A stretch of DNA of 64,000 nt, taken from positions 1,756-65,755 of the forward strand of contig MGVC01000014.1 of the NCBI GenBank assembly GCA_001800285.1, in the 5' to 3' direction. How positions within the stretch are numbered: the first letter of the stretch is position 1; each line of letters begins with the position of its first letter. This stretch comes from Elusimicrobia bacterium RIFOXYA2_FULL_39_19 (GTDB taxonomy: Bacteria > Elusimicrobiota > Endomicrobiia > CG1-02-37-114 > XYA2-FULL-39-19). Below are positions 1 to 30,709 of the stretch, piece after piece. Both the position numbers and the translations under genes were made by a program. The notes under the pieces are model-generated. The model saw nothing but the letters and a program-made list of their open reading frames with translations, did no database searches and had not been told where the DNA came from.

Positions 1-1119
1 TATGCCCAGCCTGCTTTCCACGCTTGCCTTGTAAGCGGCATCTGTTACTTCCGGGGACATATTTACGGTATCTGTGCTGTGCGCGCTTCTTGCATAGTCG
101 CATTTAAAGGTGGCGTATTTGAAGGACCCGATCATAAAATTAACACCCATTACCTTGTTCTGCAGGGGGTATACATCTGTGCCGGTATTAAGGATTGAAT
201 TTTTATCATCAGAGCTGGTAACGTAGTTAATGCTTACCGAATTATCATAAAAAATATCTATCTTTTCCTGGACTGCATAAACATACCTGGCAAAGTTGCC
301 GTTGGCTGTTATGGTACCGCTGGAATTTAGCGCCGCTTCTTTGGGGTCTACGCTTCTGGCGGCCACTATTGACGTTGTGGCAGGGCCTGTTCTTATAACC
401 GGCATTACGCCTCGCATACCGGCGTTGGACAGAGATAAAGCGCTGAAATTTGGCATTATGTCGCCGAAAGTAACATCAAACTTGCTGGAGCGGTAATCTA
501 AAATAAAGTTATATAAATCAAAGGTTTTTTCCGGAGTGTGGTAAGTATATACGTTGCAGACTACGCTTTTCTGATAAATGCTTCCCAGCACGTTTAAGCT
601 GATATTTCCCACATAATTTTTCCAGTTGTCTTTTGATTCGTTTTTATAAGCAATGGTTGCGTTGCCGCCAATCTGCACATCTTTGGGCGGTTTTACCTCC
701 GGGGCAATAACAGTAATAGGGGTTATGGTTAAGGGCTGGAAGTCGCTATAGGCAAGGCGCTGAGTGTTTTGAATATAGCTTACCTTATAATAATAGGCTC
801 CGCCGGCATTGGGAGGCACGTTGAAAGTTACAAAATCAAGAATGGTTCCGCCGGGCGCTACATCTTCTTTATTTTTTGCTTTATCTGATTTACCCAGATA
901 TACTTTATCTTTGTCATAAACTTCTACTTCCAGCTCACAGGTGCCGCTGCCCCAGGCAGTACCGCTTCTGTTGACAGTAATTACCTGAAAGGTTACTTTT
1001 TCACCGGCATTTACCGGATCCGGGGCGGGTACAATCAGCTGAAATTCAGCCAGGTCTGCCGCAAAAGCAAGAGAAACAACGGCTCCTACAATAAAGAAAG
1101 CGAACCCTAAAGTTCGCAT
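1..1119 (-). CDS. Secreted hypothetical protein, partial. The N-terminal signal peptide is in the window (MRTLGFAFFIVGAVVSLAFA); the C-terminus lies beyond the window start.
   Basis: Reverse frame is open from an ATG at 1117-1119 down to position 1; I checked every codon. The N-terminus has a hydrophobic signal-peptide-like segment. The ORF track omits it because it runs off the edge. Confidence 0.6.
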   Translation of the reverse strand, partial: MRTLGFAFFIVGAVVSLAFAADLAEFQLIVPAPDPVNAGEKVTFQVITVNRSGTAWGSGTCELEVEVYDKDKVYLGKSDKAKNKEDVAPGGTILDFVTFNVPPNAGGAYYYKVSYIQNTQRLAYSDFQPLTITPITVIAPEVKPPKDVQIGGNATIAYKNESKDNWKNYVGNISLNVLGSIYQKSVVCNVYTYHTPEKTFDLYNFILDYRSSKFDVTFGDIMPNFSALSLSNAGMRGVMPVIRTGPATTSIVAARSVDPKEAALNSSGTITANGNFARYVYAVQEKIDIFYDNSVSINYVTSSDDKNSILNTGTDVYPLQNKVMGVNFMIGSFKYATFKCDYARSAHSTDTVNMSPEVTDAAYKASVESRLGI

Positions 1120-1200
1120 TAAATTACTGCCTTTGTTCTCATAATTGTTTGTTTTCACAAGCAATATTCCCTGGCTTTCGGATTAAATAATCCTTTTATA

Positions 1201-1929
1201 TTACTTCTTGAATTTTAATTTAATTGTCTTTTCTTCGCCGGCATCTGTTTTTATTTTCATATTAAGCGTCTTTCTTTCTATTTTTATTTCTTCCTGCCAG
1301 CCTCGCTTTCCATCCATTTCATCTTTTTTCACTTCTTCGGGCTGGCCCGGGGCATTGCCACCGGTAGCTGTTGCCTGCTGGTTTTCTTTTACTTCCACTG
1401 AGCCGTATTCATTTTCAAACTGCACTATACCTTTTACTACCATTACGGTGGTATCTCCGTTTTCAGAGACATCCGTATCAAATTCCGTACCGCGCACGCT
1501 GACTACAGCCACGGGTGTTTTTACAGAAAACCTTAACCCGCCGCCTTTTTTTGCCCTTAAACTGCAGGTCCCCTGGCCTTTATTTATTCTTACCGTATCG
1601 GATTTGCCGGGCTCACTGATATCTATTGCAAATTCTGTATTCTGGTTTATTTTAACTTCTGCGCCGTTTGAAAACATGATAGCCGCTTTTGACTTTTTGG
1701 CTGTCCTTAACTTATCACCTTGATATAAAAACATGCCTGATTTTGCTCTCTCCCAAGTCGTTTTACCTTCTCGCTGAACTTCCATCTTACCCATAACCTG
1801 GGTAACCATAGCCGCCACATCTTTTTTAGCAGCATGAACGTCTGTAAGCAGGAAGTGGGAAGTAGTAAGTAGTAATAATAACAAAACAGTGATAAACGGG
1901 TTTAATTTATAATTTTTTAAAAAGTTCAT
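1201..1929 (-). CDS. FecR-domain protein. It has a signal peptide or membrane anchor and a beta-rich FecR-like core (..VAVVSVRGTEFDTDV..).
   Basis: 242-aa ORF with an N-terminal hydrophobic segment. The sequence pattern matches the FecR family (PF04773-like), which are anti-sigma / signal-transducer proteins. Confidence 0.65.
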   Translation of the reverse strand: MNFLKNYKLNPFITVLLLLLLTTSHFLLTDVHAAKKDVAAMVTQVMGKMEVQREGKTTWERAKSGMFLYQGDKLRTAKKSKAAIMFSNGAEVKINQNTEFAIDISEPGKSDTVRINKGQGTCSLRAKKGGGLRFSVKTPVAVVSVRGTEFDTDVSENGDTTVMVVKGIVQFENEYGSVEVKENQQATATGGNAPGQPEEVKKDEMDGKRGWQEEIKIERKTLNMKIKTDAGEEKTIKLKFKK

Positions 1930-2201
1930 GAATGCTCTCTCTTTGTATGATTTTTACTTGCGACTTGCGAATCACAACTTACAACTTACGTTTTTTATTT
2001 TTTTTCTTTTTTCTATTCCCTTATTTCCCTATGAACATTTCTTCTGAAAGACCTTTACAGTTAAACAACGCGAAGAAACATTTATGAAGAAAACCTCTTG
2101 GTGGCGACTTGGGCTAACTTGGAGCCACCAAAAGAGTGAGCTGCCGGCGAACGTTTTTCGGAAGAAATGTTTCTGAGCGGTGTGCGCAGAAATGTTCACC
2201 C

Positions 2202-3773
2202 CTACTCTTTTTCCTCTTCTACCGTATAACTCACAATAGTCGCTTTCTTGTCTTTGAGCATATAGAAAAGATCCTGTATATTGCCTGCAGGCTCTAATAC
2301 AATCTCTGTCAGATTAAACCCTTCAAACTGGTCAATCACTTTTTTATCTTTTATCAAATCCTTGGTAATATTTAGCATATCCTGCGGTGTAATATCTGCG
2401 CGCTTGGCTTCCTCTTTCTTTTCTTCCTGCTTTTTTTCTTCTTCTTTTGCCTTTAATTCCAGTTCAAAATCCGTATTCGGATAAGCCTTATGTTTGCTTA
2501 CTGTTACCGTAAGGGCTTCTGAATCCTTATAATCCGGGTGCGTTACTTTTATAGAATAATCGCCTAACGCCAGGTTTTCTATTTTATATTCCCCGCCGTT
2601 ATTGGTTTTAACTATTCCGCTGGCCGGCCCGCTGAACATAATGGTAGCTTCGGCTACTTTTTTGGTTTTGCTTCCTTTTTCTATTACGCTTCCCAATATT
2701 TTTGCTTTTTCCTTTATAGGAACTCTTATGACTTTGGTTAAAATATTGTTCTTTGGGTTATCATCAAAAATATTTAAAGTGGCGCTTACGGTAACTGCCT
2801 CACCGGTTAAGGACCCGCAGTTAAACACAACGGTTTTTGTATCACTGGCTTCTATGGTATTTATGCTTTGTGAAGGGACTATGTTGCCGCCTACTATCAC
2901 CAGGTCCAGGCTGGTATTGGACTCAGTTTTATTGCCGAGATTTTTAATTAAAACACCCAGCATTAAAGCATCTACGGTGGTTCTTTCATCAAGAATAATA
3001 TCTGAAACCGCCAAATCCGAAGACATAACAGTTGCATCTTTTATAGTAAAAGAAAACGGAGATCTGGTTTCTGCTACAACGCGGTCCATGGAATCCAGGC
3101 CGTCAACTTTCCAATAATAAACAGGCCCGCTTTTAAGCTTTGCCATCTGGTCAGAGGGGTCCCTGGGATATTCTATCTGGGTAGTATAGGATTCACTGGT
3201 CCACAAGGGACGGTAAAAAGAAGCATTATCACCTACATGTATTTTATACTTGGTGGCGCCGCTGCCGCTCCAGCTGAAAATTAACGGCTGGGCTAAAATG
3301 TCTCTGGCGCCGTCATAGGGATAGGTTAATGAGATATTGGAAGAAGTAATGTTAAACATGGCGGTATTTGAAACAGTAACACCTTCCGCAGTTATAGCTT
3401 CACCCTTAAACTTATAATTGCCGGGTTTTGTATAAAAAGACATAGGAATATTTCTAAGTTCCGTACCCCCCATGCCAATAGTTCCCGGCATAGAGTTGCC
3501 ATCCTGGTAAAATACCTGCGCGCCGTTGGGGTCATACACATAGAACTTGAAATTGACGGTGCTTGAAAATGTATCGTTATAGATAGCTATTTTAAAAGTG
3601 ATGGTTTCGGTGTTTGAATAGGTGGTTCTCTGCATAAACGCGGAATCCAGCGTTTGTACGGCAGTAATGGATACGGCTCCTGCTGATGCCGCAAACATAA
3701 AACAAATTGCAACAGTTAATAATATGCTTAGTTTATTTTTTATTCCCATACTCTCTCTCTTATCTTTTTTCAA
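2202..3773 (-). CDS. Secreted protein with a carboxypeptidase-regulatory-like (CarboxypepD_reg) beta-sandwich domain and a Lys/Glu-rich C-terminal region.
   Basis: 523-aa ORF with a signal peptide (alternative start at M9, MGIKNKLSILLTVAICFMFAASAGA). It carries the motif GGEYKIENLALGDYSIKVTHPDYKDSEALTVTV typical of CarboxypepD_reg domains, then a KEEEKKQEEKKEEAKR low-complexity segment. Confidence 0.6.
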   Translation of the reverse strand: MKKDKRESMGIKNKLSILLTVAICFMFAASAGAVSITAVQTLDSAFMQRTTYSNTETITFKIAIYNDTFSSTVNFKFYVYDPNGAQVFYQDGNSMPGTIGMGGTELRNIPMSFYTKPGNYKFKGEAITAEGVTVSNTAMFNITSSNISLTYPYDGARDILAQPLIFSWSGSGATKYKIHVGDNASFYRPLWTSESYTTQIEYPRDPSDQMAKLKSGPVYYWKVDGLDSMDRVVAETRSPFSFTIKDATVMSSDLAVSDIILDERTTVDALMLGVLIKNLGNKTESNTSLDLVIVGGNIVPSQSINTIEASDTKTVVFNCGSLTGEAVTVSATLNIFDDNPKNNILTKVIRVPIKEKAKILGSVIEKGSKTKKVAEATIMFSGPASGIVKTNNGGEYKIENLALGDYSIKVTHPDYKDSEALTVTVSKHKAYPNTDFELELKAKEEEKKQEEKKEEAKRADITPQDMLNITKDLIKDKKVIDQFEGFNLTEIVLEPAGNIQDLFYMLKDKKATIVSYTVEEEKE

Positions 3774-3909
3774 TAACGGGCATAAGACCCGTCTTGCTTA
3801 ATTGCTATATTAAGTTTATAAGATTATAAGTTGATAGGTTGATATGGTAATATTTGTTTTCTGTCCGTTCTTATCAACTTATCAACATATCAACCATTTA
3901 TCATCTATA

Positions 3910-6900
3910 CTATTTGATTATAGCAAATTTGCCTATAAACCTGGCTTTCTCGCCGTTGGCATTATCTTTCACTTCAAGAATAAACAGGTAAACTCCGCTG
4001 GCCGCCAGGTCTCCTGCGTCATTTCTGCAATTCCATACATATTTACGGTTGGCATTGGTTTCTATGATAACATCTATTTCAGCATCGTTTATAGTTTTTA
4101 CAAGTTCGCCGGCAATGGTGTATACCTTTATTTGTGATTCCGGCACATTATAACCGGTGTAATACTTTAAGGTTAGGCTTCCTATAGTGCTGGGGTTAGG
4201 ATAAGAAATAGTTTTGCCGTCTAATATTCCCTGGAATGAAAGTGTTATAGAAACACGCTGGCCCTCTTTTACATCCAGGACTTTCATAGTGCTGTAAACA
4301 ACTCCGTTATAACCCTTCACCACATATTTACCGGGCAGAAGATTCGGAATTTCATATTTGCCGCTGTTATCTATGGGAATACGCAGTGTTGTGCCGGGGC
4401 CGTCTTTTAAGTGGTAAATTTCCACATAACCTATGCCGTTACCCGGTACCAGCGCTTTTGCGCGGAATTTATAATCGCTGAATTTTGCTGCGCTCATGGC
4501 AGATAGTTTGCCGGTTGCTTTATAACCCGCCATCTGGCCGGATATGGTAGCAAGTTCATAATCTATTTCCAGGGTAAAGTTAACGCTCTTGGTGCCTGTT
4601 TTAACTTCTCTGTACACCAGGGATACTTTTTCTCCCTCATACAGAGACACCCTGATGATGTAAGTTGTATTTTCTGTTAAACCCGTGAAGTTATAAGTAC
4701 CGTCCGTATAAGTATAAACTTTTTTTACTACGGTATCATTTAACAGGGCTTCACACGGAATAGTGGAAAGAGGCGTGCCGTCTTTCTGCGTAACTTTTCC
4801 TAATATTGTATCCGGTGCTATGATTTCATAAGGAAGCGCTTTTTCCGGGCCGATATGGCCTGATTCATAATCCGCTGTATCTACTGCTGTTACCTTATAA
4901 TAGTAGGTTACGCCGTTTTCCAGGTTATCGGTATCGGTAATGCCTGCTACAGTAACAGTTCTTATTTTTTCATAGGCATTCTGCGTGCCGTCCGCTGAAA
5001 CACTGGAACGGTAAACAAAATATTTACTGAAAGATACCGTGTTGCTCATGGTCCAGGTAAGCACAGCCTGTTTGTCGCTGGCTGTTACCGCAAGGGAAGC
5101 AGGATTGAACATTATATGCACATCATCAAACTGGGCATAAGTGGCATTGGCATACAAGCCCACATACCCGCCGGTATAATCATTGCTTACGGTTTCTTCG
5201 CAGACAAGCGTGTAGGTTACGCCGTCAGCAGACATATAAACTCTCTTGGTTGTGCCTGAAGTGTATACTTTTACATAATACCAGGTGCCGTTTGAAATAT
5301 TATAAGTTCCCTGGGAAAGCTGTGTGCCGCTTAAAGTTTTTAAAGTAAAGGTAAAGGTTGAGCCTTCATTGCTGAATTTATAACCCTGGGTGCCGTCTGC
5401 ACGGAAGACTACGCCGGCATCCAGCCCTTCTACCATTTTCATTTTTGTATAATAGGTAAAATCAGTATAAGTGCGCGTGGTAAGCAGGCTTACTTTATTT
5501 CCCGCCCTGGTATCCTGCTGGCTATAAACAGTGTTGCCGGCAGAACCTTCTTCAAGCGCCCAGACACCCGAATTCTGCTGCCAGATGCCGCCGGTAGTAT
5601 TTACGCCGCTGACCATTCTTAAATCATCAACAATAACAGAAGCTGTTTTTCCCGGCATGGATACCGCATCAATGTGGACAGCTACTACATTATTCCAGAA
5701 GAAGGTGCCTGCCTTTGCGCCGTCTGCGCGGGTAATATTTACTTTATTCCAGCCGGTAGTGAGATTATTTATGGTATATTCAATTCTGTTTGCAAAATCC
5801 GCAGTATAGCCGAATACAAGTTTTATATAAGACAGGTTGTTCTGGTCATCTACGTTTATCCATAATGACAAGCCGTCACTGTCGTTAAGTTTTGAGTAAG
5901 TCATACCGGTCACAAAGTTAAAGGTGCTGGCAACTACAGCTGAGTTCATGGAAGTCAGCAACAGTGCAGAAGAGCCTTCCTTATAACCCGTTGATACGCT
6001 TACCGCGCCTACCCAGGTTTCTGAAGCTTCAAATCTGGTAATGGTGCTGTAATACTGGTTATATTCTGAGAAGGTTATATGCACGCTTCCTGCGGTAAAT
6101 AGCATTACCGGGCAGCCGTTAACTTCGCTGGAAGCGGAACTTTCATAATTGGTGTTATCAATGGCGGTTAACTGATAATAATAGGTAGTATTGTTTGCCA
6201 CTGATTTATCCTGATAACTTACGCTTGGATTTAAAATGGTGGCAATGTAACTCTTTGATGCCAGGTTTCCGCTGGCAATGCTTCTGTATAATTTGTACGC
6301 CTTTATATCCGGCTCAGAGCTTGTCAGCCAGGAAAGGTTTAACTGCCCGCCTTCCGGCTGAACGGTAAGCTGTAAACTTGCCGGTGCTGCAGGCGCCAGA
6401 TTTCTGGCATAAGTGGTTGCGGCATTTGAAATATCGCTGTAGTTGCCGTAATCATCAACAGCCCATATTCTAAAGTAATAGGTAGCATCCGGATATAAGC
6501 CCGCTAATTTATAGGCCATTGTTGTGCCGGATGAAATACCGGCAGTGGAAATTGTTATCTGGGCATTGGTATAAGCCCAACCCACGGAGGCAGAGGTGGC
6601 GTACGCTATACGGAAAGCTCCGTTAAAAATTCCTGAAACATCATCATCACCCGTTGAATTCCAGGAAAGCAGTATTTCGCCTTCACTGTCTCCCGTGTTA
6701 GCAGAAAGCGTGGTAATAGCCGCAGGGCTGACTTTATCTGCAGTATCAATAACGAATTTTATTTCCTGAGAACTGAATGTGGTTAAACCAGAATTATCTA
6801 CTGCCGCAACTTTCCAGTAATAGGTGTTATCAGAAAGGAAAGCAAAATTATAAATTGAAGGGACAAGCCCTGTGACCGTCATAGTATTTGCAAAAGTTAT

Positions 6901-9900
6901 ATAGGTTGAATAATAAATTGAATAAGTTAAGCTGGCACCGAGGTCCGCATCAGAAGAATCCTGCCAGTCAAGTGTAATAGTGGTGGTACCATTTATTACA
7001 CCGTCAGCCGGTGACAATAGATTAAATGCCGCCGGCGCATTTGGCACTGTATCTACCGTGAAAGCGCCCATGAAAGTGCTCGTGCTGGACAAAGTTGAAC
7101 CGCCCGTAGCATAGGACCTTATTCTCCAGTAATAGGAAGCGTTATCCATAAGCGGTGTCGCTAATGTATAACCTGTTGTACCAGTAATTCCTGAAACAAA
7201 ACTGTACCCGCCAAATCCTGAGTCTGTGGTATATTGCACTTCATAACTTACCGGGTCTGCTTCCGGGTCTGTGGCAGCAGTCCAGTTAAAATAAGGATTT
7301 AACGTGGTTACTACCGTAGAAGCTACCGGATAAATCAAGTTAACCGCTGTCGGCGGGCCATTGGGCACTCTGTCTGTTATTATTGAAATAGTGCTGTTGA
7401 AATTCGTAAATATGCTGTCAGTATTCTGCGCTCTTACCTTAATATAATAAGTTGTGCCCTGAGTAAGAGTGGTTATAGTTGAAGTGGTGCCGGCAGTCAG
7501 TGTGCCAAGTGTTGTTGTGGCAAAGGAGGTATCTGTGGCTCTGGCTACCTGATAGTTTGTGCCTGCCGGGTTTGTATCTCCCCAGGTTATTGTGGTACTT
7601 GATAGGCCCACCATAACCATAGCTGCAGAACCCGGAACTTCGGCCATGGAGTATTTAGTTAATGCTGTAGAATTTGCAGTACCTGACGGATTATAAGCCT
7701 GCACATAAACGTTTGAAGATGAATTTACAGAAAGCCCTGTCATTATCCAATAAGTTACACTGGCAGCTAAGTCACCGCTTAAATTTGCATTATCCGCATC
7801 GCTTCTTACACGGTGGCCGAAAGCAAACGTGCCAGGTACCCAGCTCCACTGAATTGAATTAGTAGATAAAGGTGTACCGGATAATGTTGGAGCAAGCGGC
7901 GCAGGCAAAATAGTCAGCGTTGAAATAACGCTGTCAAAGTTTGTCGGCTGGCTGTTTTCAGAGTAAGCACAGACCTTGTAGTAATAAGTTGTGTAAATTG
8001 TCAGTCCGGTATCTGTGTAATTTGTGCCGGTTAGGCCGTTAGAGAAATCTCTTACGGTAACGGTGGTGGCCCACACGCTGTCTGATGAACGGAGGATGCC
8101 GTATTTGGTGTAGGATGGGTTTTGGTTATTGCTCCAATTTACTGTGATGCTGTATGATGTTACATTGTTTACATACGAACCTGACGGGAAATTAGCCAGG
8201 GTCATATTATAGGCAGGCAAACCGCTTGAAACACTGGCAGCAGTACGGCTGATAACAGTAACTCTTCCGTAGTATGTAGTGTTAGGCGTAAGGTTTATTA
8301 TTTGCTTTTGTGCTGTATCTGACTTCACGCTTTCAGAACTTCCTTGAATTGAAGAAAAAGCCGCCTGGCTTGACACTTCAAAAACATATCTTGTATCGGC
8401 CGGATTTGAGGTAGCATCAGATGACCAGTCAGCAATAAGCGAAGATTGAGTGACTGTACCCCAGTTTAAACCATTGGGAGATTCCGGAAGAGTAGCATTC
8501 CATGGCTGAGCTGCATAACCTACGGTTTGCAGGCCAACACGGTTTCCTGCAAGAATTCTTATATAGTATGTCGTGTTTGGGTTCAAGCTTCCAAGAGTAC
8601 CTGAAGCATCAGATCTCAATCTGGACTGCTGGCTGGTTATAGTTGAAAAATCGCTGGAAGTTGCTGCCTGCACTACATAAGGCGTATCTGCCGGGTTATC
8701 AGGCACTGAGGCAACCCAGATAATTTCTATTGAATTACTCAATACTGTTCCATAACCGGTTGAATTCGGAGTGTTGCAAAGGGTAACTTTGGTTGTCAAA
8801 TCAATATATTGACTGTCAATGCTATTGCCATTTCTTGCCATAACCTGGAAGTAATAAGTTGTATTTGGGTCAAGATTCCAGAATTCTGCATAAATATTCT
8901 TCGTGTCGGATGAAACAAATACCGGCCCGGCTGTGCTGACGGATGAACATTCCACAACATAATCTGTGCCATTTGCATTGCCATTCTGGGTCCAATCTGC
9001 CTGTATATAGTTATTCCCCACGCTGGAGAAAACAGCAAACCCGGGCACTGTTGCCAGTGCGTACTTTAACTGCGGGCCGGACGGTGCTGAACCTTCAGCA
9101 TTAAAGGATTCTACATAAACATTTGTTGATATGTTTGCGCTTAAGCCCTGCTGGTTCCACCAGGTGGTAGAGGCACTTAAATCACCGCTTAAGTTTGCAT
9201 CACCTGTAAAACTTCTGATTCTGTAACCATCTGCAAAGGATACCGTGTTCCAGTTCCACATAATTATATTTGTTGAAAGAGCTGTTCCGGTTAAACCTGC
9301 CGGAGCGTCTAAGGACCCCATCTTTGTTCTTGTGGAAACCACAACATCCGGCACGGTAACTGCACCTGTTTCATTATAAGCACTCACTCTGTAATAATAG
9401 CTGGAGTCGCTTAACAGCAATGAATCTGCATAAGAATAAGTAACCCAGTTGCTGGCAAAATTAAGAAGCGTTACTGAAGTAGCAAAATTGTCAGTAGATC
9501 TTTCCAGGGCAAATTTGGTATACCCCGGATTTGTATTATCTGACCAGTTAACAGTGATAGTAGTTGATGTAACTGCATTTAAGTACGAAGAAACCGGCGG
9601 CTGTGCAAAAGTAAGTTTTGCTATTGAGCTTGTATATTGTGTTTCGTTGCTTAAAGAATCCTTTACTTTTACTCTCAGCCAGTAAGTAGTGTTTGGAGTA
9701 AGAGTTGTAAATGTAGCGCTTGAGGTCCAGCCTTCGTTGAAATTACCCCAGGTAATATTATCCGTTGAAAGCTGTAAATAATAAGGCGTGCCTGCAAGGC
9801 CCAACAGTTCATCATTTGCGCTTAAGTTTGCCTGCAACACCGTTATGGAAGTTACATAAATATTATTTGTATCAAAGGTTAAGTTAACCGGCGGCACGGT

Positions 9901-24480: not shown

Positions 24481-24591
24481 TATTTCTGTTAAATCCTGCA
24501 AATTTAAATTATATTTTATTTATATACAACAAATTAAAGTAAGAAGTGTAATTAATAATACTATCTGCCCTGGGGTTTATCTACTGTTATA

Positions 24592-24620
24592 GTAATAGCC
24601 CATAAAGGCCTAAAAGTCAA
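24592..24620 (-). promoter_or_regulatory. Candidate sigma70-type promoter for the giant adhesin gene: -35 TTGACT, 17-nt spacer, -10 TATTAC (minus-sense).
   Basis: Plus-strand agtcaa (24615-24620) and gtaata (24592-24597) read in reverse complement as TTGACT-N17-TATTAC, about 110 nt upstream of the ATG. Direct repeats gtgacaaaaatcac / gtgacaaaaaacac lie just upstream, at 24627-24660. Confidence 0.3.
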
Positions 24621-24697
24621 TGGACAGTGACAAAAATCACCTGCTGTGACAAAAAACACGAAAAACTATGAAAAATGCTCTTTTTTGGATATGGTGT

Positions 24698-25567
24698 TTA
24701 CTGAGAAAGAAATGATTTTAATTCGTCGTCTTTGGGGTTTAGCTTAAAAGCTTCGCGCCAAACTTGTATGGCTTTTGATTTTTTATTAAGTGCATAATAA
24801 GCCGACCCTAAACGTTTCATGGCCATAGCATTGGATGGTTCAAGTTCTAAAACACTATTGCATTCTACTATAGCTCTGTCATATTTAGCATCGTAAATAT
24901 AATTTAATGAAGCTACTAATTTCTGTTCTACCAGGGTCATTCCTGGCACAACCTCCACCGCTTTCAGCTGGTTGGGGTACTCTTCTTCAATCACGTTGAC
25001 AAATTTTTCAATCCTACCATCCGAAGGGTTTAACTGGCCTGCATAAATTATGGAATGCAGAGCAGTTTTAAACTTTGCGCTGGGTTTAATGTATTCCCTC
25101 ACAGCAAACCTTATTAATTTGCCGTTTTTTGTTTGAGCTGTTTCATCGCCGAAAGCTTCCTGGATTTTTCTTATTTTACCGTAAAGTTTTTTTAATTCCG
25201 TGTTATTTGGTGAGGTTTCCAGTGCGGTTTTCATATTGCTTAAAGCATCGGTATACCTGCCGGCATTGTAACTTTCCTCAACACTTTTTAGGACTTTGCT
25301 GTATTTTTCCATCAATTTCTGTTTGGCAAATTCTATAAGTTTCGGCGGCTGTACCTGTGTAGGGTCCAGTTTTAAAATCTGTTCCCAGTAAGAAATGGCT
25401 TTGCTGAAATCATTGGCCTGAAAGGACCTTATGGCAGTATCATAGTACGCTTTTATTAAACTCTGTTTTTCTTTTTCTGATAATACTTTTTCCTGCGCAA
25501 AAACATTTGCACCGGTAATTATCGGAATAAGCATAATTGCTAAAAATATTTTAGTTTTTCTTTTCAT
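24698..25567 (-). CDS. Periplasmic TPR-repeat protein with a signal peptide. It overlaps the upstream motB-like gene by 17 nt, which suggests translational coupling.
   Basis: 289 aa with an N-terminal signal peptide (MKRKTKIFLAIMLIPIITGANVFA). It has repeated TPR-like A..Y...G.Y..A helix pairs. Confidence 0.7.
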   Translation of the reverse strand: MKRKTKIFLAIMLIPIITGANVFAQEKVLSEKEKQSLIKAYYDTAIRSFQANDFSKAISYWEQILKLDPTQVQPPKLIEFAKQKLMEKYSKVLKSVEESYNAGRYTDALSNMKTALETSPNNTELKKLYGKIRKIQEAFGDETAQTKNGKLIRFAVREYIKPSAKFKTALHSIIYAGQLNPSDGRIEKFVNVIEEEYPNQLKAVEVVPGMTLVEQKLVASLNYIYDAKYDRAIVECNSVLELEPSNAMAMKRLGSAYYALNKKSKAIQVWREAFKLNPKDDELKSFLSQ

Positions 25568-26243
25568 CTTTTTTATCGCTTTTCCCCTGGCTTCTTAAAA
25601 TACTTATTTCAATTCTTCTATTTTTTGCGCGGCCTTCTTCCGTATCATTGGATTCCAAAGGATGAAACTCGCCGTAACCATAAACAGTAAAACGTTTTGA
25701 ATCTATTTTTTCTTCGTCCATAAGATATTTTATTACGCTAAAAGCCCGGGCTGCGGATAATTCCCAGTTTGAATCATACTTTCCCACTCCGGCTCTTACC
25801 GGAATGTTGTCCGTATAACCTTCTACTACAATATTATTCGGCATGTCCTTTATAATTTTCGCTATGCCTGACAAACTTTTTGCCGCTTCCGGTTTTAAAG
25901 CCGCTTCACCTGAATTATAAAGCACGGGTGCCGGCAGGGATATTTTTATTCTTTGAGAATTAATTTCTATTCTTGCAGTATCCTGCAGTTCGGATGACAA
26001 TTTATTTGCTGCGTCCGATTCTTTTGATTTCTGGCTGGCATCTTCATCTACCTTGCCACCCATGGCTGACTGTACGTTTGAAAGCAGTTTTTCTGACTCC
26101 AGACCCCCCATTGCTGATACGGAGTATAACAATAGGAAGAAGATCATTAAAGTAGTTATCAGGTCAGCATAAGGGACAACCCAACTGGATGGGTCATAAA
26201 GTGCCCTTTTATCTACCTTACCGCCAATATCTCCACCAGACAT
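25551..26243 (-). CDS. motB: MotB/OmpA-family stator protein, paralog 1. It has a single TM with the conserved Asp and a C-terminal peptidoglycan-binding OmpA-like domain.
   Basis: N-terminus ..VVPYADLITTLMIFFLLLY matches the MotB TM/plug region with the essential Asp. The C-terminus ..VVEGYTDNIPV..SNWELSAARA..NRRIEISIL matches the OmpA/MotB peptidoglycan-binding domain. A GAGG Shine-Dalgarno sits 11 nt upstream of the ATG. Confidence 0.8.
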   Translation of the reverse strand: MSGGDIGGKVDKRALYDPSSWVVPYADLITTLMIFFLLLYSVSAMGGLESEKLLSNVQSAMGGKVDEDASQKSKESDAANKLSSELQDTARIEINSQRIKISLPAPVLYNSGEAALKPEAAKSLSGIAKIIKDMPNNIVVEGYTDNIPVRAGVGKYDSNWELSAARAFSVIKYLMDEEKIDSKRFTVYGYGEFHPLESNDTEEGRAKNRRIEISILRSQGKSDKKDEKKN

Positions 26244-26247
26244 AAAT

Positions 26248-26552
26248 AAAACCTCAAGTTTTATTTACCCAGACGCTTTGGTTTTTTAAGCCGCATGGTG
26301 CGGATGAAAAACCAGTCAGGGTATAAAACCTCAATTTCCTTTACCCAGACGTTTTGGTTTTTTAAGCCGCATGGTGCGGATGAAAAACCAGTCAGGGCAT
26401 AAAACCTCAATTTCCTTTACCCAGACGTTTTGGTTTTTTAAGCCGCATGGTGCGGATGAAAAACCAGTCAGGGTATAAAACCTCAATTTCCTTTACCCAA
26501 ACGTTTTGGTTTTTTAAGCCGCATGGTGCGGATGAAAAACCAGTCAGGGTCA
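26248..26552. repeat. Tandem array of four ~76-77-bp direct repeats (>90% identical). Each unit contains an imperfect hairpin: ggtttttt-aag-CCGCA-tgg-TGCGG-atg-aaaaacc.
   Basis: Units begin at 26248, 26325, 26401 and 26477. They are contiguous with no unique spacers. They lie in the 400-bp gap between the two motB paralogs. Unit 1 supplies the Shine-Dalgarno/leader of motB paralog 1. Confidence 0.85.
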
Positions 26553-26573
26553 TAATTTCAAAAAGTGATTAAG

Positions 26574-26640
26574 TGATTAGGTTGTTAAGTGGTTAGTAAA
26601 TTATTTTAACTAAACACTAACCACTTAATCACTATTCACT
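26574..26640. repeat. Imperfect palindrome. The core is a 13-bp perfect inverted repeat, ttaagtggttagt (26586-26598) and actaaccacttaa (26616-26628), with flanking gtgatta direct repeats.
   Basis: Seen directly in the sequence. It lies immediately 3' of the motB paralog 2 stop and 5' of the tandem repeat array. Confidence 0.6.
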
Positions 26641-26645
26641 ATTTT

Positions 26646-27305
26646 TTATCTAATTACATTTATTTCAATTCTTCTGTTTTGTGCCCTGTTTTCGGGTGTA
26701 TCGTTCGGGTAAAGGGGCCTGAACTCGCCATACCCTGCCACTATAAACTTTTCTGACGACATTCCCTTTACTTTGGTAAAATAGTCAATTACACTTACAG
26801 CCCGGGCAATAGACAATTCCCAGTTGGTTGTATATCTCCCCGCTTTTAACGGTATATTATCAGTATGCCCTTCAACAACAACTTTATTGGGCAGTGCTTT
26901 CAGAGACTTGGCTATTTCATCTAATCCCAACGCTGTTTCTTTAGTAATTTCTACTTTACCTGTTTCAAAAAGCACAGGAGAAGTAAGCAGGATACGTATC
27001 ATTTTATCATTAACTTCAAGTTTTGCCAGTTTATCCAGTTTTTCTTTTTCTGAATCCAGCTTGCTTACCGCTTCCTGTTCCTGAATCTGCTTTAAAATTC
27101 TTTGGGCGCGGTCCGTCATGGCGGCATCCTTGCTTACCATGCTGGTTAGGGCAGACTGAATATTAGTTCTTTTGCTTTCATCCATACGGGTAAAAGCATA
27201 GGACATTAGAAAGAACAAAGTCAGGTTTGTAATAATATCCGCATATATTGTCAGCCAGATGGAACTTTGCTGCATTATTCTTACCGGCCGTTTACGTTTT
27301 TTCAT
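26646..27305 (-). CDS. motB: MotB/OmpA-family stator protein, paralog 2.
   Basis: N-terminus ..SSIWLTIYADIITNLTLFFL is a MotB-type TM with the conserved Asp. The C-terminus ..VVEGHTDNIPLKAG..TNWELSIARA..NRRIEINVIR is the OmpA-like domain. Confidence 0.8.
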   Translation of the reverse strand: MKKRKRPVRIMQQSSIWLTIYADIITNLTLFFLMSYAFTRMDESKRTNIQSALTSMVSKDAAMTDRAQRILKQIQEQEAVSKLDSEKEKLDKLAKLEVNDKMIRILLTSPVLFETGKVEITKETALGLDEIAKSLKALPNKVVVEGHTDNIPLKAGRYTTNWELSIARAVSVIDYFTKVKGMSSEKFIVAGYGEFRPLYPNDTPENRAQNRRIEINVIR

Positions 27306-27369
27306 GATTAACGAACAATGTTAGGGGATTAATTTATTGTTTATGGGCAAATAAGTTTGCCCTTATATT

Positions 27370-28149
27370 TTATAACTTGCTGTTAGCCAGCGACTGTTCT
27401 CTTAAGATTGCAGATAAATAACCCTCAAGTTTTTTTGCCGTTATTACAGGCACATCACCTTTATGAATTGAAACAATGCCTTCAGTAATGAGTTCCATGT
27501 TAAGAATTTCATCTTCACTGTATTCAGACAGTTTTACAGCAACGGGTAAAAAAGCAAAATTAGCGGCAAATATGCCGAAAAATGTAGCAGCCACAGCTGT
27601 TGCCATAGCGGCACCCATGGAAGTAGGGTCGGTAATATTTCTTAATACCTGCACAACACCCAGCAGGGTTCCCAGCAATCCGAAAATAGGCGCTACAGTA
27701 GCCATCATTCTAAATACGCTGGCAACTTTCTGATGCCTTTCTCTTACGTACAAAATTTCTTTTTCCAGATTGTCTTCGATAATGTCTATATCGTAACCGT
27801 CTATGAGCATTTGCAGGGCATTTCTAAAGAACTTGTCTTTTAATCCGGCTACTTCAGGCTGGAGGCCGGAAAACCCTGAACGTTTGGATTTTTCTGAAAG
27901 GCCTACAACAAGTTCTATCATTCTCAAAGATGATTCTCTTTTATTTGGGAAGAAAGCCAGACTGAAAGCCTTAGGTATGGCTTTGATAGTTGTCCAGGGA
28001 TAAGCAATGAGAGTAGAGGAAAGAGTACCTATTACAACCAGCAGAAACGCATCAAGATTAAACAACATATGCACAATTTCACCGCGCGCCATGACTATGT
28101 AAATTGCAACTACTCCGATAATTGCTCCGCCAACCGTTAACAAATCCAT
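27370..28149 (-). CDS. motA: MotA/PomA-family proton-channel stator protein. It has four TM segments with a large cytoplasmic loop between TM2 and TM3.
   Basis: 259 aa. The TM1-TM2 pair sits at the N-terminus. A ~100-aa charged loop (..RESSLRMIELV..) follows. Conserved prolines are present in TM3 (TVAPIFGLLGT) and TM4 (AFLPVAV), as in MotA. A GGGGGA Shine-Dalgarno lies upstream. Confidence 0.85.
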   Translation of the reverse strand: MDLLTVGGAIIGVVAIYIVMARGEIVHMLFNLDAFLLVVIGTLSSTLIAYPWTTIKAIPKAFSLAFFPNKRESSLRMIELVVGLSEKSKRSGFSGLQPEVAGLKDKFFRNALQMLIDGYDIDIIEDNLEKEILYVRERHQKVASVFRMMATVAPIFGLLGTLLGVVQVLRNITDPTSMGAAMATAVAATFFGIFAANFAFLPVAVKLSEYSEDEILNMELITEGIVSIHKGDVPVITAKKLEGYLSAILREQSLANSKL

Positions 28150-28171
28150 TTATTTTCCCCCAAAAATATTT

Positions 28172-29608
28172 TTAAATAAGTTCAATTATGCCTTCGGCAT
28201 TTAATTTTCTTATGCTTTCAATAACCCGGCGTTTTTCTTCGATGATTCTTTGTGCTGATAAAGGTTTACCCAACTCCATTTCCTGTTGAAGCCTTTTTCT
28301 GCCGGCTTCAGTAAGCGCTTCCATGATTTTTGCTGTATATTGTTCCGGCATGGTTTTAAGAATCTGCGCAAAAGCTGAAAGATTTATCCTGCGCATAACG
28401 GTTTGCAGAGTTTCACCGCTGAAATTGACTATATCCTCAAAACTGAAGACGGATTTCATTAATTTGGCTGCAAGGGGCGGATTCTTGGCCTTAAAATTAG
28501 CAATGATTTTGTCCTGAGTTGCTTTATCGCTGTAATCAAGCAGTTTAACAAGTATTTCATCACCGCCAAGAGAATAATTAAGGGTGTCTCTAACTTTCTG
28601 TTCAAGGGATTTTACAGCGTCAGGGTCCATCTGTTTCACGTTTGAAAATAATTCGGATACTTTCATTTTCTGATCCGCATTTAAATCAGCAAACAACTTG
28701 GAAGCCATATCTCTGTCAATGTAATTTAGAATTACCGCTATGTTTTCAGAACTTTCTGTTTTAATTGATTCTCTTAACTGATTTATTTCCTGAGGGACAA
28801 TAAACCAGAATGGTTTTCTGTTTTCACTATCGTGAGATAAAGATGCAGTCTGAGCTGACGCAGTTTCTACGGAAGTTGACTGCTGGTTTTGCGCGCCAAA
28901 ATCCTGACTTGAAGTGTTTGCTTCTTTTTGGGCCGCTACCAGTCCGGCAATAACTTCTACCAGGCTTTTTGAAAATATTTTAAATGGATTGAACAAAAAC
29001 AATACTGAGCCGAAAACAAAAAATGTTGCAAGGGCAATTATAATAACCCAGTATAGATTAGGCGGATAAAGCAGAGAATACCAGTAAAAAGGATTTTGTT
29101 TAAAATTCATTCTTTCAATTATCAGCTGGTCCCCGCGGGTTTCATCGATACCCAGTAACCCGAAAGCCACTTTTTTCATAATTTCTATCACGCTTGCGGA
29201 GACAGCTTTATCAACTATAATGGTTGCACTGATTTTCTTTATGGCGGTTTTTGTTTTTCCTATATCCAGCGGCGCTAATAAATCCTCTATTTTTCTTTCT
29301 CCGATATTTTCTTTAACAGGCACTCCTGGCAGTACCATTTTAGGCCGTTCATCAACAGTTTTAATCTGAAGTTCCTTTTTTTCTTTTTCACTGTACATCT
29401 CTGTATTGATGATAATGATAATTTTTTCCGTACCGGCAATTTCAGTAAGAACCTTTCTTAACCTGTCTTCCAGGCTTGTTTCTATCTGGATTTTTGTTTC
29501 AATACTGGTTTCGGCAATATCCGCCGCAAAGATTTGTTTGGGAGCCTGAAAAACCAACAATGAAGCAAAAATAAATAGCGCCACGAACTGATAAAACCTT
29601 TTTTTCAT
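28172..29608 (-). CDS. Membrane-anchored protein with FliG middle + C-terminal-like (FliG_MC / MgtE_N-like) domains. It has a signal peptide, a ~170-aa N-terminal domain and a central TM segment; the FliG-like region is C-terminal and presumably cytoplasmic.
   Basis: The C-terminal ~230 aa align to the FliG M and C domains. The segment NIAVILNYIDRDMASKLFADLNADQKMKVSELF matches the EHPQ-region ARM repeat. The segment ..KLMKSVFSFEDIVNFSGETLQTVMRRIN..LAFAQILKTMPEQYTAKIMEALTEAGRKRLQQEMELGKPLSAQRIIEEKRRVIESIRKLNAEGII resembles the FliG_C MFvFEDI..D..iq.vlrev...LalALkg...elrek....mskRaaemlkedle.lgpvrl.dve.aq..I. Signal peptide is MKKRFYQFVALFIFASLLVFQA. TM is VIIIALATFFVFGSVLFLF. An AGGAGA Shine-Dalgarno is present. 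Confidence 0.7.
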   Translation of the reverse strand: MKKRFYQFVALFIFASLLVFQAPKQIFAADIAETSIETKIQIETSLEDRLRKVLTEIAGTEKIIIIINTEMYSEKEKKELQIKTVDERPKMVLPGVPVKENIGERKIEDLLAPLDIGKTKTAIKKISATIIVDKAVSASVIEIMKKVAFGLLGIDETRGDQLIIERMNFKQNPFYWYSLLYPPNLYWVIIIALATFFVFGSVLFLFNPFKIFSKSLVEVIAGLVAAQKEANTSSQDFGAQNQQSTSVETASAQTASLSHDSENRKPFWFIVPQEINQLRESIKTESSENIAVILNYIDRDMASKLFADLNADQKMKVSELFSNVKQMDPDAVKSLEQKVRDTLNYSLGGDEILVKLLDYSDKATQDKIIANFKAKNPPLAAKLMKSVFSFEDIVNFSGETLQTVMRRINLSAFAQILKTMPEQYTAKIMEALTEAGRKRLQQEMELGKPLSAQRIIEEKRRVIESIRKLNAEGIIELI

Positions 29609-29686
29609 AATTTTCTCCTAATGTCTTTATATATTATTTATTGTGTAACTTTTCAAATATTTTGCGCTTTCTTCCAGTAGAGCAGC

Positions 29687-29715
29687 ATTTATATACATAC
29701 CAGACCCAATTTCAA
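29687..29715 (-). promoter_or_regulatory. Candidate promoter for the fliG-like/motA/motB operon: TTGAAA-N17-ATAAAT (minus-sense).
   Basis: Plus-strand tttcaa (29710-29715) and atttat (29687-29692). It sits in the 125-bp gap upstream of the fliG-like start at 29608. Confidence 0.3.
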
Positions 29716-29733
29716 GACTGGCCATATTTCTGA

Positions 29734-30009: not shown

Positions 30010-30153
30010 AAAACCCCTTAATAGTTATGAGTTTTAGAGCACTTGAAGGTATATTCTATATATCATTTTATTTATCAAAAAACAACGTTTTTTTAATAAT
30101 TATAATGATTTAAACCGTGCAGGCTCATTTCAAATGGGTGTTTTTCCTTAAAC

Positions 30154-30182
30154 TTGACAAAATATATATGAAATGATAGAAT
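30154..30182 (+). promoter_or_regulatory. Candidate sigma70 promoter P2 upstream of tRNA-Glu: TTGACA-N17-TAGAAT.
   Basis: Exact -35 hexamer at 30154-30159. The -10 is at 30177-30182. It lies ~110 nt upstream of the tRNA. Confidence 0.4.
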
Positions 30183-30286: not shown

Positions 30287-30290
30287 TCAC

Positions 30291-30703: not shown

Positions 30704-30709
30704 TGCCAT

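Follow-up and report, generated by a model that had tools for sequence, protein, structure and literature searches.

The window, i.e., the whole stretch of 64,000 nt that was analysed, contains nine consecutive minus-strand open reading frames (ORFs). ORF listing and domain searches recovered every one of them at the place given in the original prediction. Just upstream of this run and on the same strand are genes for a PorV/PorQ-family protein, located 1.1 kb from the rotor gene, and for an S8 peptidase. The features are:

31634..33193, minus strand: subtilisin-like S8 peptidase with a C-terminal sorting domain (CTD; TIGR04183, 27.8 bits, cutoff 23)
30710..31630, minus strand: PorV/PorQ-family outer-membrane protein, a possible partner (NF033709, 120 bits, cutoff 90)
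28172..29608, minus strand: rotor protein FliGL, 478 aa (FliG_C, FliG_M, YscJ_FliF_C)
27370..28149, minus strand: MotA, flagellar-type stator A subunit, 259 aa, a PomA-like length (MotA_ExbB, 3e-26)
26646..27305, minus strand: MotB1, with plug, a TM helix that carries the conserved Asp, and an OmpA-like domain for peptidoglycan binding (Pfam MotB_plug and OmpA)
26246..26555, no strand: tandem repeat, 76 nt x 4.1, in the motB1-motB2 spacer
25551..26243, minus strand: MotB2, the second MotB paralog (MotB_plug and OmpA)
24698..25567, minus strand: secreted TPR protein, fifth core member (domain search; conserved after motB2)
3910..24501, minus strand: giant surface protein, 6,856-6,863 aa (FN3-like domains, CTD)
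2202..3773, minus strand: secreted CARDB/CarboxypepD_reg protein, 523 aa, conserved accessory gene (domain search, orthologs)
1201..1929, minus strand: secreted FecR-domain protein, LipL45/Lsa33-like, conserved accessory gene (domain search, orthologs)
1..1119, minus strand: N-terminal part of OMP640, 373 codons, running off the window edge (tblastn, 31-34% identity)

As predicted, no further flagellar gene was found in the 64-kb window by ORF listing, by Pfam searches of ten of the remaining ORFs, and by eye for the others, which were judged to be housekeeping genes. A pilT gene is located 11 kb upstream.

The proposed FliG relation of the 478-aa protein is borne out by matches to FliG_C (1.6e-18) and FliG_M (9.9e-11) in a Pfam-type domain search. 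The protein is related to FliF as well, with a match to YscJ_FliF_C (23.6 bits) just under the cutoff of 23.8. A signal/TM segment is followed by a periplasmic domain resembling RBM3 of FliF (residues ~30-182), a TM helix (~186-208), a disordered linker, FliG_M, and FliG_C; FliG_N is absent. RBM3 is the FliF-type ring-building domain that forms the flagellar S-ring. In the rotor protein, its alpha-beta-beta-alpha-beta fold carries an insertion of ~50 aa between beta1 and beta2, and an invariant LPGVPVKE loop is predicted to lie on the periplasmic side, at the position of the FliF beta-collar. The data show that this predicted covalent join of FliF-type and FliG parts through one TM helix substitutes for the FliF-C/FliG-N contact. 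Among FliG features, K264, D289 (an invariant Glu here), the GG linker, and the hinge (VFSFED, MFxF-like) are kept. The FliM-binding EHPQR motif is lost, and the equivalents of R281, D288, and R297 are uncharged; two of the five canonical torque-helix charges are retained. The rotor family comprises more than 100 clusters at 50% identity, and nearly all of the best 150 matches at this clustering cover both halves of the protein and have the fused architecture. All members with a taxon name are Elusimicrobiota. An alignment of 16 sequences with 35-67% identity to the window protein has 39 invariant columns, with reading frames intact.

The prediction of MotA and two tandem MotB/OmpA paralogs was confirmed by matches to MotA_ExbB, MotB_plug, and OmpA. 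Judged by sequence, MotA is of the flagellar type, not the Tol/Exb type: it scores 196 bits against NF005997 (MotA) and just 2.6e-4 against TolQ in NCBIfam, and its best matches in NCBIfam and in PDB (9e-46) are all flagellar MotA/PomA. The equivalents of P173 and P222 are kept, the R90 position is K/R, and the E98 equivalent is uncharged, such that one of two canonical charges is present. The FliM-binding EHPQR motif, FliG R281, and MotA E98 (the usual partner of R281) were lost together, and the MotA R90/FliG D289 pair is retained on both partners. This pattern is as would be expected for a co-evolved, simplified stator-rotor interface, and the predicted charge interface is canonical by half only. 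MotB1 and MotB2 share 43% identity and orthologous pairs were found across the family; MotB2 is an anciently diverged paralog. All MotB1 orthologs examined retain the equivalent of E. coli MotB Asp32, and in MotB2 this proton-carrying position is Asn in four loci (L001, L009, L010, and L013). The repeat array reported between the two motB genes is also present; its copies are 96% identical, sit in a 402-nt spacer, and the last one provides the GAGG ribosome-binding site of motB2. This array was not found in 20 relatives' loci (L001-L020).

The periplasmic TPR protein was described correctly in the original prediction, including the 17-nt overlap of its gene with motB2. This gene is kept after motB2 in nearly all loci, and its product has a weak match to tol_pal_ybgF (E 0.0025). 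The five-gene core (rotor, motA, motB1, motB2, and TPR) represents an Elusimicrobiota family kept from 24% to 67% rotor identity, and its synteny with the giant-protein block is conserved, with rearrangement, down to the lower figure. Of 18 informative independent loci, 14 have an accessory gene within 10 kb of the core, arranged in three different ways, and nine have a giant-protein gene adjoining the core. The core stands alone, with no accessory gene within reach, in four (L001, L004, L025, and L026), of which L004 also lacks the TPR gene; the accessory link is therefore not obligatory in cis.

The recurrent block combines a giant CTD gene with genes for CarboxypepD_reg and FecR proteins and for OMP640, a protein of ~640 aa whose C-terminus is of the outer-membrane type; where the block is complete (the window and L040), the genes run in this order, giant first. 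Linkage to the core is more frequent for the last three than for the giant. CARDB/CarboxypepD_reg orthologs (30-43% identity over 266-437 aligned aa), each adjoined by a FecR-domain ortholog, were found in L009, L010, L015, L018, L021, L028, L038, and L040. The OMP640 gene adjoins the core in L009, L010, L011, L013, L015, L018, L021, L028, L029, L030, L032, L037, and L040. In a divergent subtype, the core is linked instead to PorV/PorQ::TPR fusions and CTD giants. In L019, L020, and L022, a TPR homolog is fused to a PorV/PorQ-like barrel and the fusion gene is directly upstream of the rotor gene. These Rosetta-stone fusions adjoin CTD-tagged giants of at least 3,521 aa (L022) and 8,833 aa (L020), and a cluster of PorV genes and CTD proteins surrounds L019. 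The S8-PorV/Q pair of the window is also found upstream of the core in L005.

The ninth gene had been taken to encode a secreted protein. The gene and its signal peptide are present, but it is the N-terminal part of the conserved OMP640, which in full-length orthologs consists of a signal peptide, an Ig-like domain, and a long region ending in ...SYSF. OMP640 has no matches in Pfam (including Plug and TonB_dep_Rec), NCBIfam, or PDB, and no relation to PorV/Q by hhalign. From its C-terminal motif and signal peptide only, it is predicted to be an outer-membrane beta-barrel. The giant ORF spans 6,863 codons if started at TTG and 6,856 if started at the first ATG; it encodes a signal peptide, ~43 FN3-like domains, a LamG-like domain, CarboxypepD_reg, and a CTD. 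Its N-terminus has a duplicated module of ~610-650 aa with no Pfam match. The size and FN3-rich nature given in the original prediction hold, but the type IX secretion (T9SS) tag is borderline (TIGR04183, 23.6 bits, cutoff 23.0; Pfam Por_Secre_tail below threshold). The CTD is conserved in orthologous giants: those of L009 and L010 share the N-terminal module and 350-490 aa at the C-terminus (31-35% identity). Because such genomes often carry FN3-rich giants, some of the neighborhood could have arisen by chance, a reading that the specific orthologs of CarboxypepD_reg, FecR, and OMP640 speak against.

The retained torque-making parts (fused FliF-FliG, MotA, and two MotB), with no other flagellar gene in the window, point to an undescribed envelope rotary machine. 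The module is probably a functional non-flagellar motor, and we think it fairly likely that this motor works together with the accessory/giant block. With a modest degree of confidence, we favor a rotary motor that is made of flagellar parts, driven by ions, and independent of a flagellum, with an envelope-spanning accessory set acting on the giant surface protein. In such a machine, the fusion protein would oligomerise into a membrane ring, turned by peptidoglycan-anchored MotA5(MotB1/MotB2) units through the retained MotA K/R90-FliG E(D289) contact. The LPGVPVKE loop on the periplasmic ring face would hand motion to the TPR, FecR, and CarboxypepD_reg proteins, and these to outer-membrane barrels (OMP640, PorV/Q-like) holding the CTD of the giant. 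The adhesin would then be moved or tensioned on the cell surface, resulting in SprB-like gliding or adhesion with a flagellar-type motor replacing GldLM. From the stator-driven adhesin/gliding system first proposed, the FliG relation and conserved synteny stand. The data agree with several outputs: secretion, anchoring, or tensioning of the giant would fit as well as gliding does, and gliding as such is a tentative reading.

The same motor may instead serve secretion or assembly, supplying the energy by which CTD-tagged proteins, chiefly the giant, are exported, inserted into the outer membrane, or attached, in a role like that of GldLM/PorLM in T9SS rather than moving an adhesin already displayed. 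This overlaps with the surface-protein motor because one Bacteroidota motor does both jobs. The CTD-like domains on the giant and the S8 peptidase, the neighboring PorV/PorQ-family gene, the PorV/Q::TPR fusions, and the clustering around L019 all fit, and GldL/GldM-like genes were not found in the window or annotated relatives' loci. However, homologs of SprA/Sov, PorU, and GldK/N were seen in none of the loci examined, the CTD matches T9SS models only marginally, and the known T9SS layout does not pair a dedicated motor with a single cargo gene; we consider this account unlikely. FecR and CarboxypepD_reg domains are the usual companions of TonB-dependent receptors in Bacteroidota. This would suit a Tol-Pal/TonB-type energiser that powers a transporter/signalling unit (OMP640, FecR, and CarboxypepD_reg) or outer-membrane maintenance, with a CpoB-like TPR protein and the giant as a neighbor, not the load. 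The position of the TPR gene at the operon end, like cpoB in tol-pal, its weak tol_pal_ybgF match, and the more frequent linkage of these three accessory genes agree with it. Such an energiser is nevertheless improbable: MotA is not TolQ/ExbB-type, a TonB/TolA-like gene is absent, OMP640 lacks receptor domain matches, the giant gene is first in complete blocks, and a FliF-type ring with a FliG torque domain implies large-rotor rotation, unused by Tol and Ton.

Given the homology to flagellar parts, the genes could also be decaying leftovers of a flagellum that has been lost, or could serve a flagellum encoded elsewhere; their position beside the adhesin would then be accidental. Complete flagellar sets exist in a few Elusimicrobiota (bioRxiv 10.1101/2022.07.08.499144), and L020 has FlbD-motA-motB, a typical flagellar arrangement. 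However, flagellar structural genes are reported to be missing from most free-living Elusimicrobiota and from most carriers, although motAB, flbD, and fliG, whose role is unclear, are present (bioRxiv 10.1101/2022.07.08.499144), and flagellar genes were reported absent in sampled Elusimicrobia (PMC7031533). The intact frames and invariant columns, the many clusters with fused architecture, the conserved core order and non-flagellar partners, and the loss of FliG_N and the FliM-binding motif make either version very improbable. No flagellar gene other than FlbD was found in the Pfam-annotated relatives' loci, and the rotor fliG never adjoins fliF, fliH, or fliI in the loci examined. We give hardly any credence to a type IV pilus partner that modulates twitching or pilus function; we know of no precedent or mechanism joining FliG and pili, and a consistent pilus-gene link to the core is absent across more than 20 loci. 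What speaks for it is the pilT gene of the window, a secretin gene 2.4 kb downstream of the core in L001, and the twitching raised as a possibility by the authors of bioRxiv 10.1101/2022.07.08.499144.

The favored rotary motor shares with the flagellar motor core the RBM3-type fold, FliG_M and FliG_C, a PomA/MotA-type MotA, and MotB with plug, critical Asp, and OmpA domain; torque at the MotA-FliG_C interface is likely the mechanism common to both. Unlike in flagella, RBM1, RBM2, the FliF C-terminal peptide, and FliG_N are missing, because rotor and ring are one polypeptide. Two MotB paralogs are obligate, export gate, rod, hook, filament, and switch genes are not nearby, and the partners are TPR, FecR, CarboxypepD_reg, outer-membrane, and giant CTD proteins. 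In Chlamydiaceae, a lineage without flagella, a shortened FliF (signal sequence, RBMs, and TM) is naturally fused to a FliG-like cytoplasmic domain (Bergeron, bioRxiv 10.1101/023564). That protein (~330 aa) has RBM2, one more RBM, and only a FliG_M-like domain, without the torque-generating FliG_C; its proposed role is in type III secretion, together with CdsQ, and a MotAB partner has not been described for it (bioRxiv 10.1101/023564). In contrast, the Elusimicrobiota protein has RBM3, FliG_M, and FliG_C, and its gene is beside motA and motB. Salmonella and Vibrio FliF-FliG fusions engineered in the laboratory assemble rings (PMC10941966, PMC11481574; PDB 8z4d), but these constructs join full-length proteins inside a complete flagellum.

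Among gliding machineries, the Bacteroidota gliding/T9SS apparatus (GldLM, GldKN, SprA, PorV, and SprB with SprF) resembles the locus, on sequence grounds, in its inner-membrane ion-driven 5:2 motor, periplasmic links to outer-membrane barrels, giant repetitive adhesin of SprB-like size with a CTD, and PorV/PorQ-family protein, and the TPR and CarboxypepD_reg domains recall PorE. It differs in using GldLM, where the locus has MotAB and a FliF/FliG rotor, and Elusimicrobiota is a phylum outside the FCB group. Myxococcus Agl-Glt likewise pairs a single A subunit, AglR, with two distinct B subunits, AglQ and AglS, and its genes for TPR proteins, outer-membrane barrels, and a surface adhesin are grouped. 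However, AglRQS is TolQR-type, without a FliG-like rotor and with B subunits lacking OmpA domains, whereas the locus has a flagellar-type stator and a predicted ring-forming rotor.

All nine co-directional genes of the original prediction were located on the minus strand, together with neighboring genes on the same strand:

28172-29608, minus strand: FliGL, a rotor protein of 478 aa
27370-28149, minus strand: MotA
26646-27305, minus strand: MotB1
25551-26243, minus strand: MotB2
24698-25567, minus strand: TPR protein, with a 17-nt overlap with motB2
3910-24501, minus strand: giant protein, 6,863 codons from a TTG start or 6,856 from the first ATG
2202-3773, minus strand: CarboxypepD_reg/CARDB protein
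1201-1929, minus strand: FecR-domain protein
1-1119, minus strand: ninth gene, the N-terminal 373 codons of OMP640 (a conserved protein of ~640 aa with a predicted outer-membrane barrel), continuing beyond the window edge
29734-30009, minus strand: truncated galT of 91 codons, just upstream of FliGL
30710-31630, minus strand: PorV/PorQ-family gene (NF033709, 120 bits; cutoff 90), just upstream of FliGL
31634-33193, minus strand: S8 peptidase with a C-terminal sorting domain (CTD; TIGR04183, 27.8 bits; cutoff 23)

As had also been claimed, the window holds no other flagellar gene according to the ORF list and Pfam searches of ten other ORFs. Genes for the export apparatus, rod, hook, filament, and switch were found neither in the 64-kb window nor in the Pfam-annotated relatives, and the rotor gene is not part of a fliF-fliG-fliH cluster, the arrangement that marks a flagellum system. 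The locus has a torque core of the flagellar kind but does not fit the system-level definition of a flagellum. In simple scans of the locus, promoter and terminator counts did not exceed those of shuffled sequence, and the minus strand showed no terminator between genes; the latter result makes one or few transcripts, and thus co-transcription of the cluster, possible.

The 478-aa protein proposed to be FliG-like is a natural mini FliF-FliG fusion. Domain searches identified FliG_M (PF14841, 42.2 bits; cutoff 25) and FliG_C (PF01706, 67.4 bits; cutoff 23.3), and the profile of 16 family sequences matched T. maritima FliG at 3e-44. In Foldseek searches with the AlphaFold model, FliG structures took ranks 1-13, and FliF RBM3 entries took ranks 14-32 when the full model was used. 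The N-terminal half contains a signal/TM segment, a periplasmic domain of ~150 aa, and a TM helix (residues ~186-208). The best PDB match of the sequence profile of this periplasmic domain is FliF (E = 0.015), and the domain modelled alone adopts an alpha-beta-beta-alpha-beta ring-building fold. A low-confidence insertion of ~50 aa between strands 1 and 2 of the model occupies the position of the FliF beta-collar and carries an invariant LPGVPVKE motif. FliGL thus resembles the MS ring in having an RBM3 ring-building fold with a TM helix after it. Absent from FliGL are RBM1 and RBM2, which house the export gate in FliF, and the FliG-binding peptide of the FliF C-terminus; its ~150-aa periplasmic region is a single RBM. 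FliGL also has no separate FliG_N, the domain that binds the FliF C-terminus: the sole FliG_N match overlaps FliG_M (residues 287-357), and the score against the full-length FliG model TIGR00207 is 82.9 bits (cutoff 226.7).

FliG from E. coli and T. maritima was explicitly aligned with the 16 FliGL family sequences to call their motifs (E. coli numbering). Only the Glu of the FliM-binding EHPQR motif is retained, with variable, non-canonical residues at the H, Q, and R positions in all 16 members; this loss fits a rotor without a switch. The K264 equivalent is retained in 15 of the 16 sequences, and the D289 equivalent is an invariant Glu (Glu443). Other positions have changed, namely R281 (A/V/G), D288 (invariant Gln), and R297 (S/P/T/N). 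Most members retain the GG linker, and the MFxF hinge is present as VFSFED. One helical turn past the R281 position, all members have an Arg (R439); its assignment as the counterpart of E. coli FliG R281 was rejected, as the explicit alignment places it at position 285.

The neighboring genes encode a MotAB stator of the flagellar type, as anticipated. The best family matches (5.6e-58) and best PDB matches (9e-46) of MotA are all flagellar MotA/PomA/MotP, compared with only 2.6e-4 for the TolQ model. The NCBIfam equivalog score of MotA lies below the cutoff (196 vs 340), which indicates a diverged member of the flagellar type. The features of flagellar MotAB are present, namely, a large MotA cytoplasmic domain and the plug, Asp, and OmpA-type domain of MotB. 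Both MotB1 and MotB2 carry the plug and the OmpA domain; they are 43% identical to each other and are maintained as separate orthologs across the family. The equivalent of the proton-carrying Asp32 of E. coli is always kept in MotB1, and in MotB2 this position is Asn in four lineages (L001, L009, L010, and L013 among the fetched loci of relatives). MotB1 and MotB2 may form a heterodimer within the MotA pentamer, in which case the Asn in MotB2 would leave the stator with one functional proton site.

The accepted model for E. coli, reportedly that of Zhou, Lloyd and Blair from 1998, has two charge pairs between stator and rotor: MotA R90 with FliG D289, and MotA E98 with FliG R281. Among 13 MotA orthologs, position R90 is invariably K/R; position E98 holds Q/T/S/A and never an acidic residue, which is instead usually found two positions later. 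P173 and P222 both have counterparts. The R90-D289 pair is therefore retained on both proteins and the E98-R281 pair is lost on both. To judge from the sequences, this is what a co-evolved, simplified stator-rotor interface would look like.

For the gene neighborhood, ORFs of 40 fetched loci (L001-L040) were compared with the window proteins. The order of the five-gene core (FliGL, MotA, MotB1, MotB2, and TPR) is constant from 67% down to 24% FliGL identity, and the TPR gene is missing from the core in L004 only. A second block of genes for the giant, CarboxypepD_reg, FecR, and OMP640 proteins recurs in variable positions. The link between the motor genes and the giant-protein block, which the original prediction proposed to check by synteny in relatives, thus holds. 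This block is downstream of the core in the window, upstream in L009, L010, L028, and L038, and in convergent orientation on the opposite strand in L015, L018, L037, and L040, the last with the same giant-CarboxypepD_reg-FecR-OMP640 order as the window. In L005, the TPR gene is followed by the start of an FN3-rich giant-like gene at the contig end. OMP640 follows the TPR gene in L009, L010, and L028, i.e., in those contigs with an upstream block that reach past the TPR gene, and it flanks the core by itself in L011, L013, L029, L030, and L032. The order in L021 is OMP640-CarboxypepD_reg-FecR-core. Once duplicates were removed, 18 loci were informative: 14 carry one or more accessory genes no farther than 10 kb away, nine have a giant gene, and four (L001, L004, L025, and L026) have the core alone. 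In L011, a gene for a small cyclic-nucleotide-binding protein (11162-11611; cNMP_binding, 9e-17) lies between the TPR and giant genes and could provide a regulatory input.

A divergent subtype was found in L019 (8407-15630), L020 (1-21944), and L022 (1-13976). Its rotor proteins are 24-28% identical to FliGL, are 631-672 aa long, and have additional C-terminal TPRs. Immediately upstream of each rotor gene is a gene for a PorV/PorQ-like barrel fused to a domain homologous to the window TPR protein (33-37% identity over ~190-220 aa). Such Rosetta-stone fusions are classical evidence of joint action and suggest that the separate TPR and PorV/PorQ-type proteins of the window act together. In L020 and L022, the fusion gene is preceded by a gene for a CTD-ending giant (8,833 aa in L020, at minimum 3,521 aa in L022). 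A further gene downstream of the rotor gene encodes a long proline-rich/coiled-coil protein in L020 (1,091 aa) and L022 and an 830-aa protein with no Pfam match in L019, which also has a Roadblock/LC7 (MglB-like) gene nearby. In L020, genes for FlbD, MotA, a single MotB, and a Wzy_C/TPR protein come next.

The sorting domain of the window giant scores above the cutoff of TIGR04183 (23.6 vs 23.0 bits) and below that of PF18962 (20.6 vs 27 bits). We know of no study that credits Elusimicrobiota with type IX secretion. The gene at 30710-31630 encodes an outer-membrane protein of the PorV/PorQ family known from type IX secretion, and no GldL/GldM (PorL/PorM), GldK/N, SprA, or PorU was seen in the window or the fetched loci. 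The window giant has an N-terminal module (31% identity over >1,000 aa) and the last 350-490 aa including the sorting domain (31-35%) in common with those of L009 and L010, so these giants are true relatives rather than merely FN3-rich proteins. The OMP640 sequence combines a signal peptide with an Ig-like domain and ends in SYSF; it found no match in Pfam, NCBIfam, or PDB-sequence searches; a relationship to the PorV/PorQ family was rejected (hhalign probability 0.2). At its N-terminus, the window giant has a ~610-650-aa module in duplicate (residues 1-653 and 929-1537), each copy opening with a W-D-G-G-G...N-W motif. This module is common to the giants of the window, L009, L010, L011, and L028, and a Pfam search with the 900-aa N-terminal region returned no match. 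Repeats at residues ~2298-2656 with a D-L-K-Y-A motif resemble a beta-propeller by eye. In the window, L005 (1004-3525), and L019 (980-5327), a gene for a CTD-bearing S8 peptidase is accompanied by one or two genes of the PorV/PorQ family, which suggests a general pathway for handling CTD proteins in Elusimicrobiota.

A word-indexed search found 15 relatives. When 1.84 billion cluster representatives were searched exhaustively with the profile, 448 proteins scored E <= 1e-30; among the best 150 of these, nearly all cover both halves of the profile. The closest match in the collections has 67% identity. Every family member with a name belongs to an Elusimicrobiota or Endomicrobiales MAG. For the divergent TPR-fused subtype, the 668-aa long-form member P0088 is the only one tied to Elusimicrobiota.

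To our knowledge, Elusimicrobiota are regarded as a non-flagellate phylum, and torque generation by FliG-MotAB is considered a property of flagella alone. According to one preprint, full flagellar gene sets occur in only a few Elusimicrobiota, and most free-living members lack flagellar structural proteins yet possess motAB, flbD, and fliG homologs, whose role was called unclear by the authors (10.1101/2022.07.08.499144). Flagellar genes were also absent from sampled Elusimicrobia (PMC7031533). A recent survey of MotAB relatives considered stators with a plug, an OmpA domain, and a large cytoplasmic domain diagnostic of flagellar motility (PMC12505986), a view with which this locus is at odds. 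Neither the fusion architecture nor its gene neighborhood is analyzed in the literature that we could search; the only earlier mentions were a brief remark in the Uzun preprint and the chlamydial FliF-FliG fusion. The latter is the nearest natural precedent but has other RBMs and only a FliG_M-like domain, with no MotAB partner described (10.1101/023564).

Alongside these domain identities, motifs, and gene linkages, we infer a mechanism of five steps. RBM3 is the ring-forming part of FliF. Engineered FliF-FliG fusions also form rings (PMC10941966; PMC11481574), and on these grounds we propose that FliGL would oligomerize into a membrane ring. Peptidoglycan-anchored MotA5(MotB1/B2) units would rotate this ring, and its periplasmic face would contact the TPR, FecR, and CarboxypepD_reg proteins. 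These proteins may in turn reach outer-membrane barrels that hold the C-terminal domain of the giant, such that the giant FN3-rich protein would be moved or tensioned. The observation of the original prediction is confirmed and extended, and its interpretation is supported in part, by the motor identity and the conserved link to the giant-protein block, with gliding as a candidate output. The system-level gene set matches no described machine. Its layout of one A and two B subunits, TPR proteins, outer-membrane barrels, and an adhesin resembles Bacteroidota SprB/GldLM and Myxococcus Agl-Glt, but the motor belongs to neither family.

The most far-reaching reading, to which we give somewhat less than even chances, is a third bacterial rotary envelope machine in Elusimicrobiota, distinct from the flagellum and the GldLM motor. 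Its minimal rotor would be the single FliF(RBM3)-FliG(MC) polypeptide, driven by a flagellar-type MotA and a MotB1/MotB2 heterodimer and working without an export apparatus, rod, or filament. Torque passed through the TPR, FecR, and CarboxypepD_reg proteins to outer-membrane barrels bearing CTD-tagged giant adhesins would result in surface motility or active adhesion. Such a machine may have arisen by exaptation from a lost flagellum or be related to the pre-flagellar rotor. The data behind the five-step mechanism are also compatible with a motor for the secretion or assembly of CTD proteins, which we rank second to it. A Tol/Ton-like energizer of OMP640 ranks third; MotA is not of the TolQ type, the B subunits have OmpA domains, and no TolA/TonB-like ORF was found in the cluster. 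We consider it improbable that the locus is a flagellar relic or accessory, and likewise that it serves as a partner of type IV pili.

If this rotor-stator pair is used without a flagellum across the phylum, one polypeptide would replace FliF and FliG in a natural minimal rotor without a switch complex, available for structural and biophysical work, and the locus would bear on the origin of the flagellar motor or its recycling after flagellar loss. It would also suggest a mode of movement or surface attachment for non-flagellate Elusimicrobiota and provide a candidate explanation for their motAB/fliG genes, described as enigmatic by others, even in magnetotactic members (10.1101/2022.07.08.499144). 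The system further offers testable partners for the 3,500-8,800-aa surface proteins of candidate phyla.

Most of the 402-nt motB1-motB2 spacer is occupied by 4.1 copies of a 76-nt unit with 96% identity (26246-26555). Each unit has a CCGCA...TGCGG hairpin, a GAGG ribosome-binding-like site, and a 13-codon ORF (MRLKKPKRLGKGN), and the final copy supplies the ribosome-binding site of motB2. The motB1 stop codon is followed by a separate long hairpin (~26580-26625), and the 411-nt stretch 26240-26650, comprising the spacer and a few bases next to it, is much more stably folded than shuffled sequences (z = -7.4). The repeat was not found in 20 related loci (L001-L020), and the spacer in L005 is only 56 nt. 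A known RNA was rejected as its identity, as an Rfam scan of 24400-31000 matched no such family and returned only the tRNA-Glu and sub-threshold noise.

In L004 and L005, a full-length galT lies directly upstream of the rotor gene; only its first 91 codons are present in the window. Nearby, the 3' end of the tRNA-Glu gene (30290-30363) is copied perfectly over 38 nt (30334-30371 and 30486-30523), and the anticodon-loop sequence recurs between the copies. Together, the galT truncation and tRNA-Glu duplication resemble a scar left at the tRNA gene by an integration or deletion.

Elsewhere in the window, a 564-aa protein (38181-39875) has a DnaA ATPase domain (2e-72) and no match to the DnaA C-terminal DNA-binding domain. 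The cumulative GC skew has no turning point at this gene, so it may encode a DnaA paralog rather than the replication initiator. Just upstream, beside pilT, is a gene for a 325-aa proline-rich protein (39881-40858), the C-terminus of which is similar by eye to the C-terminal ~150 aa of the 564-aa protein.
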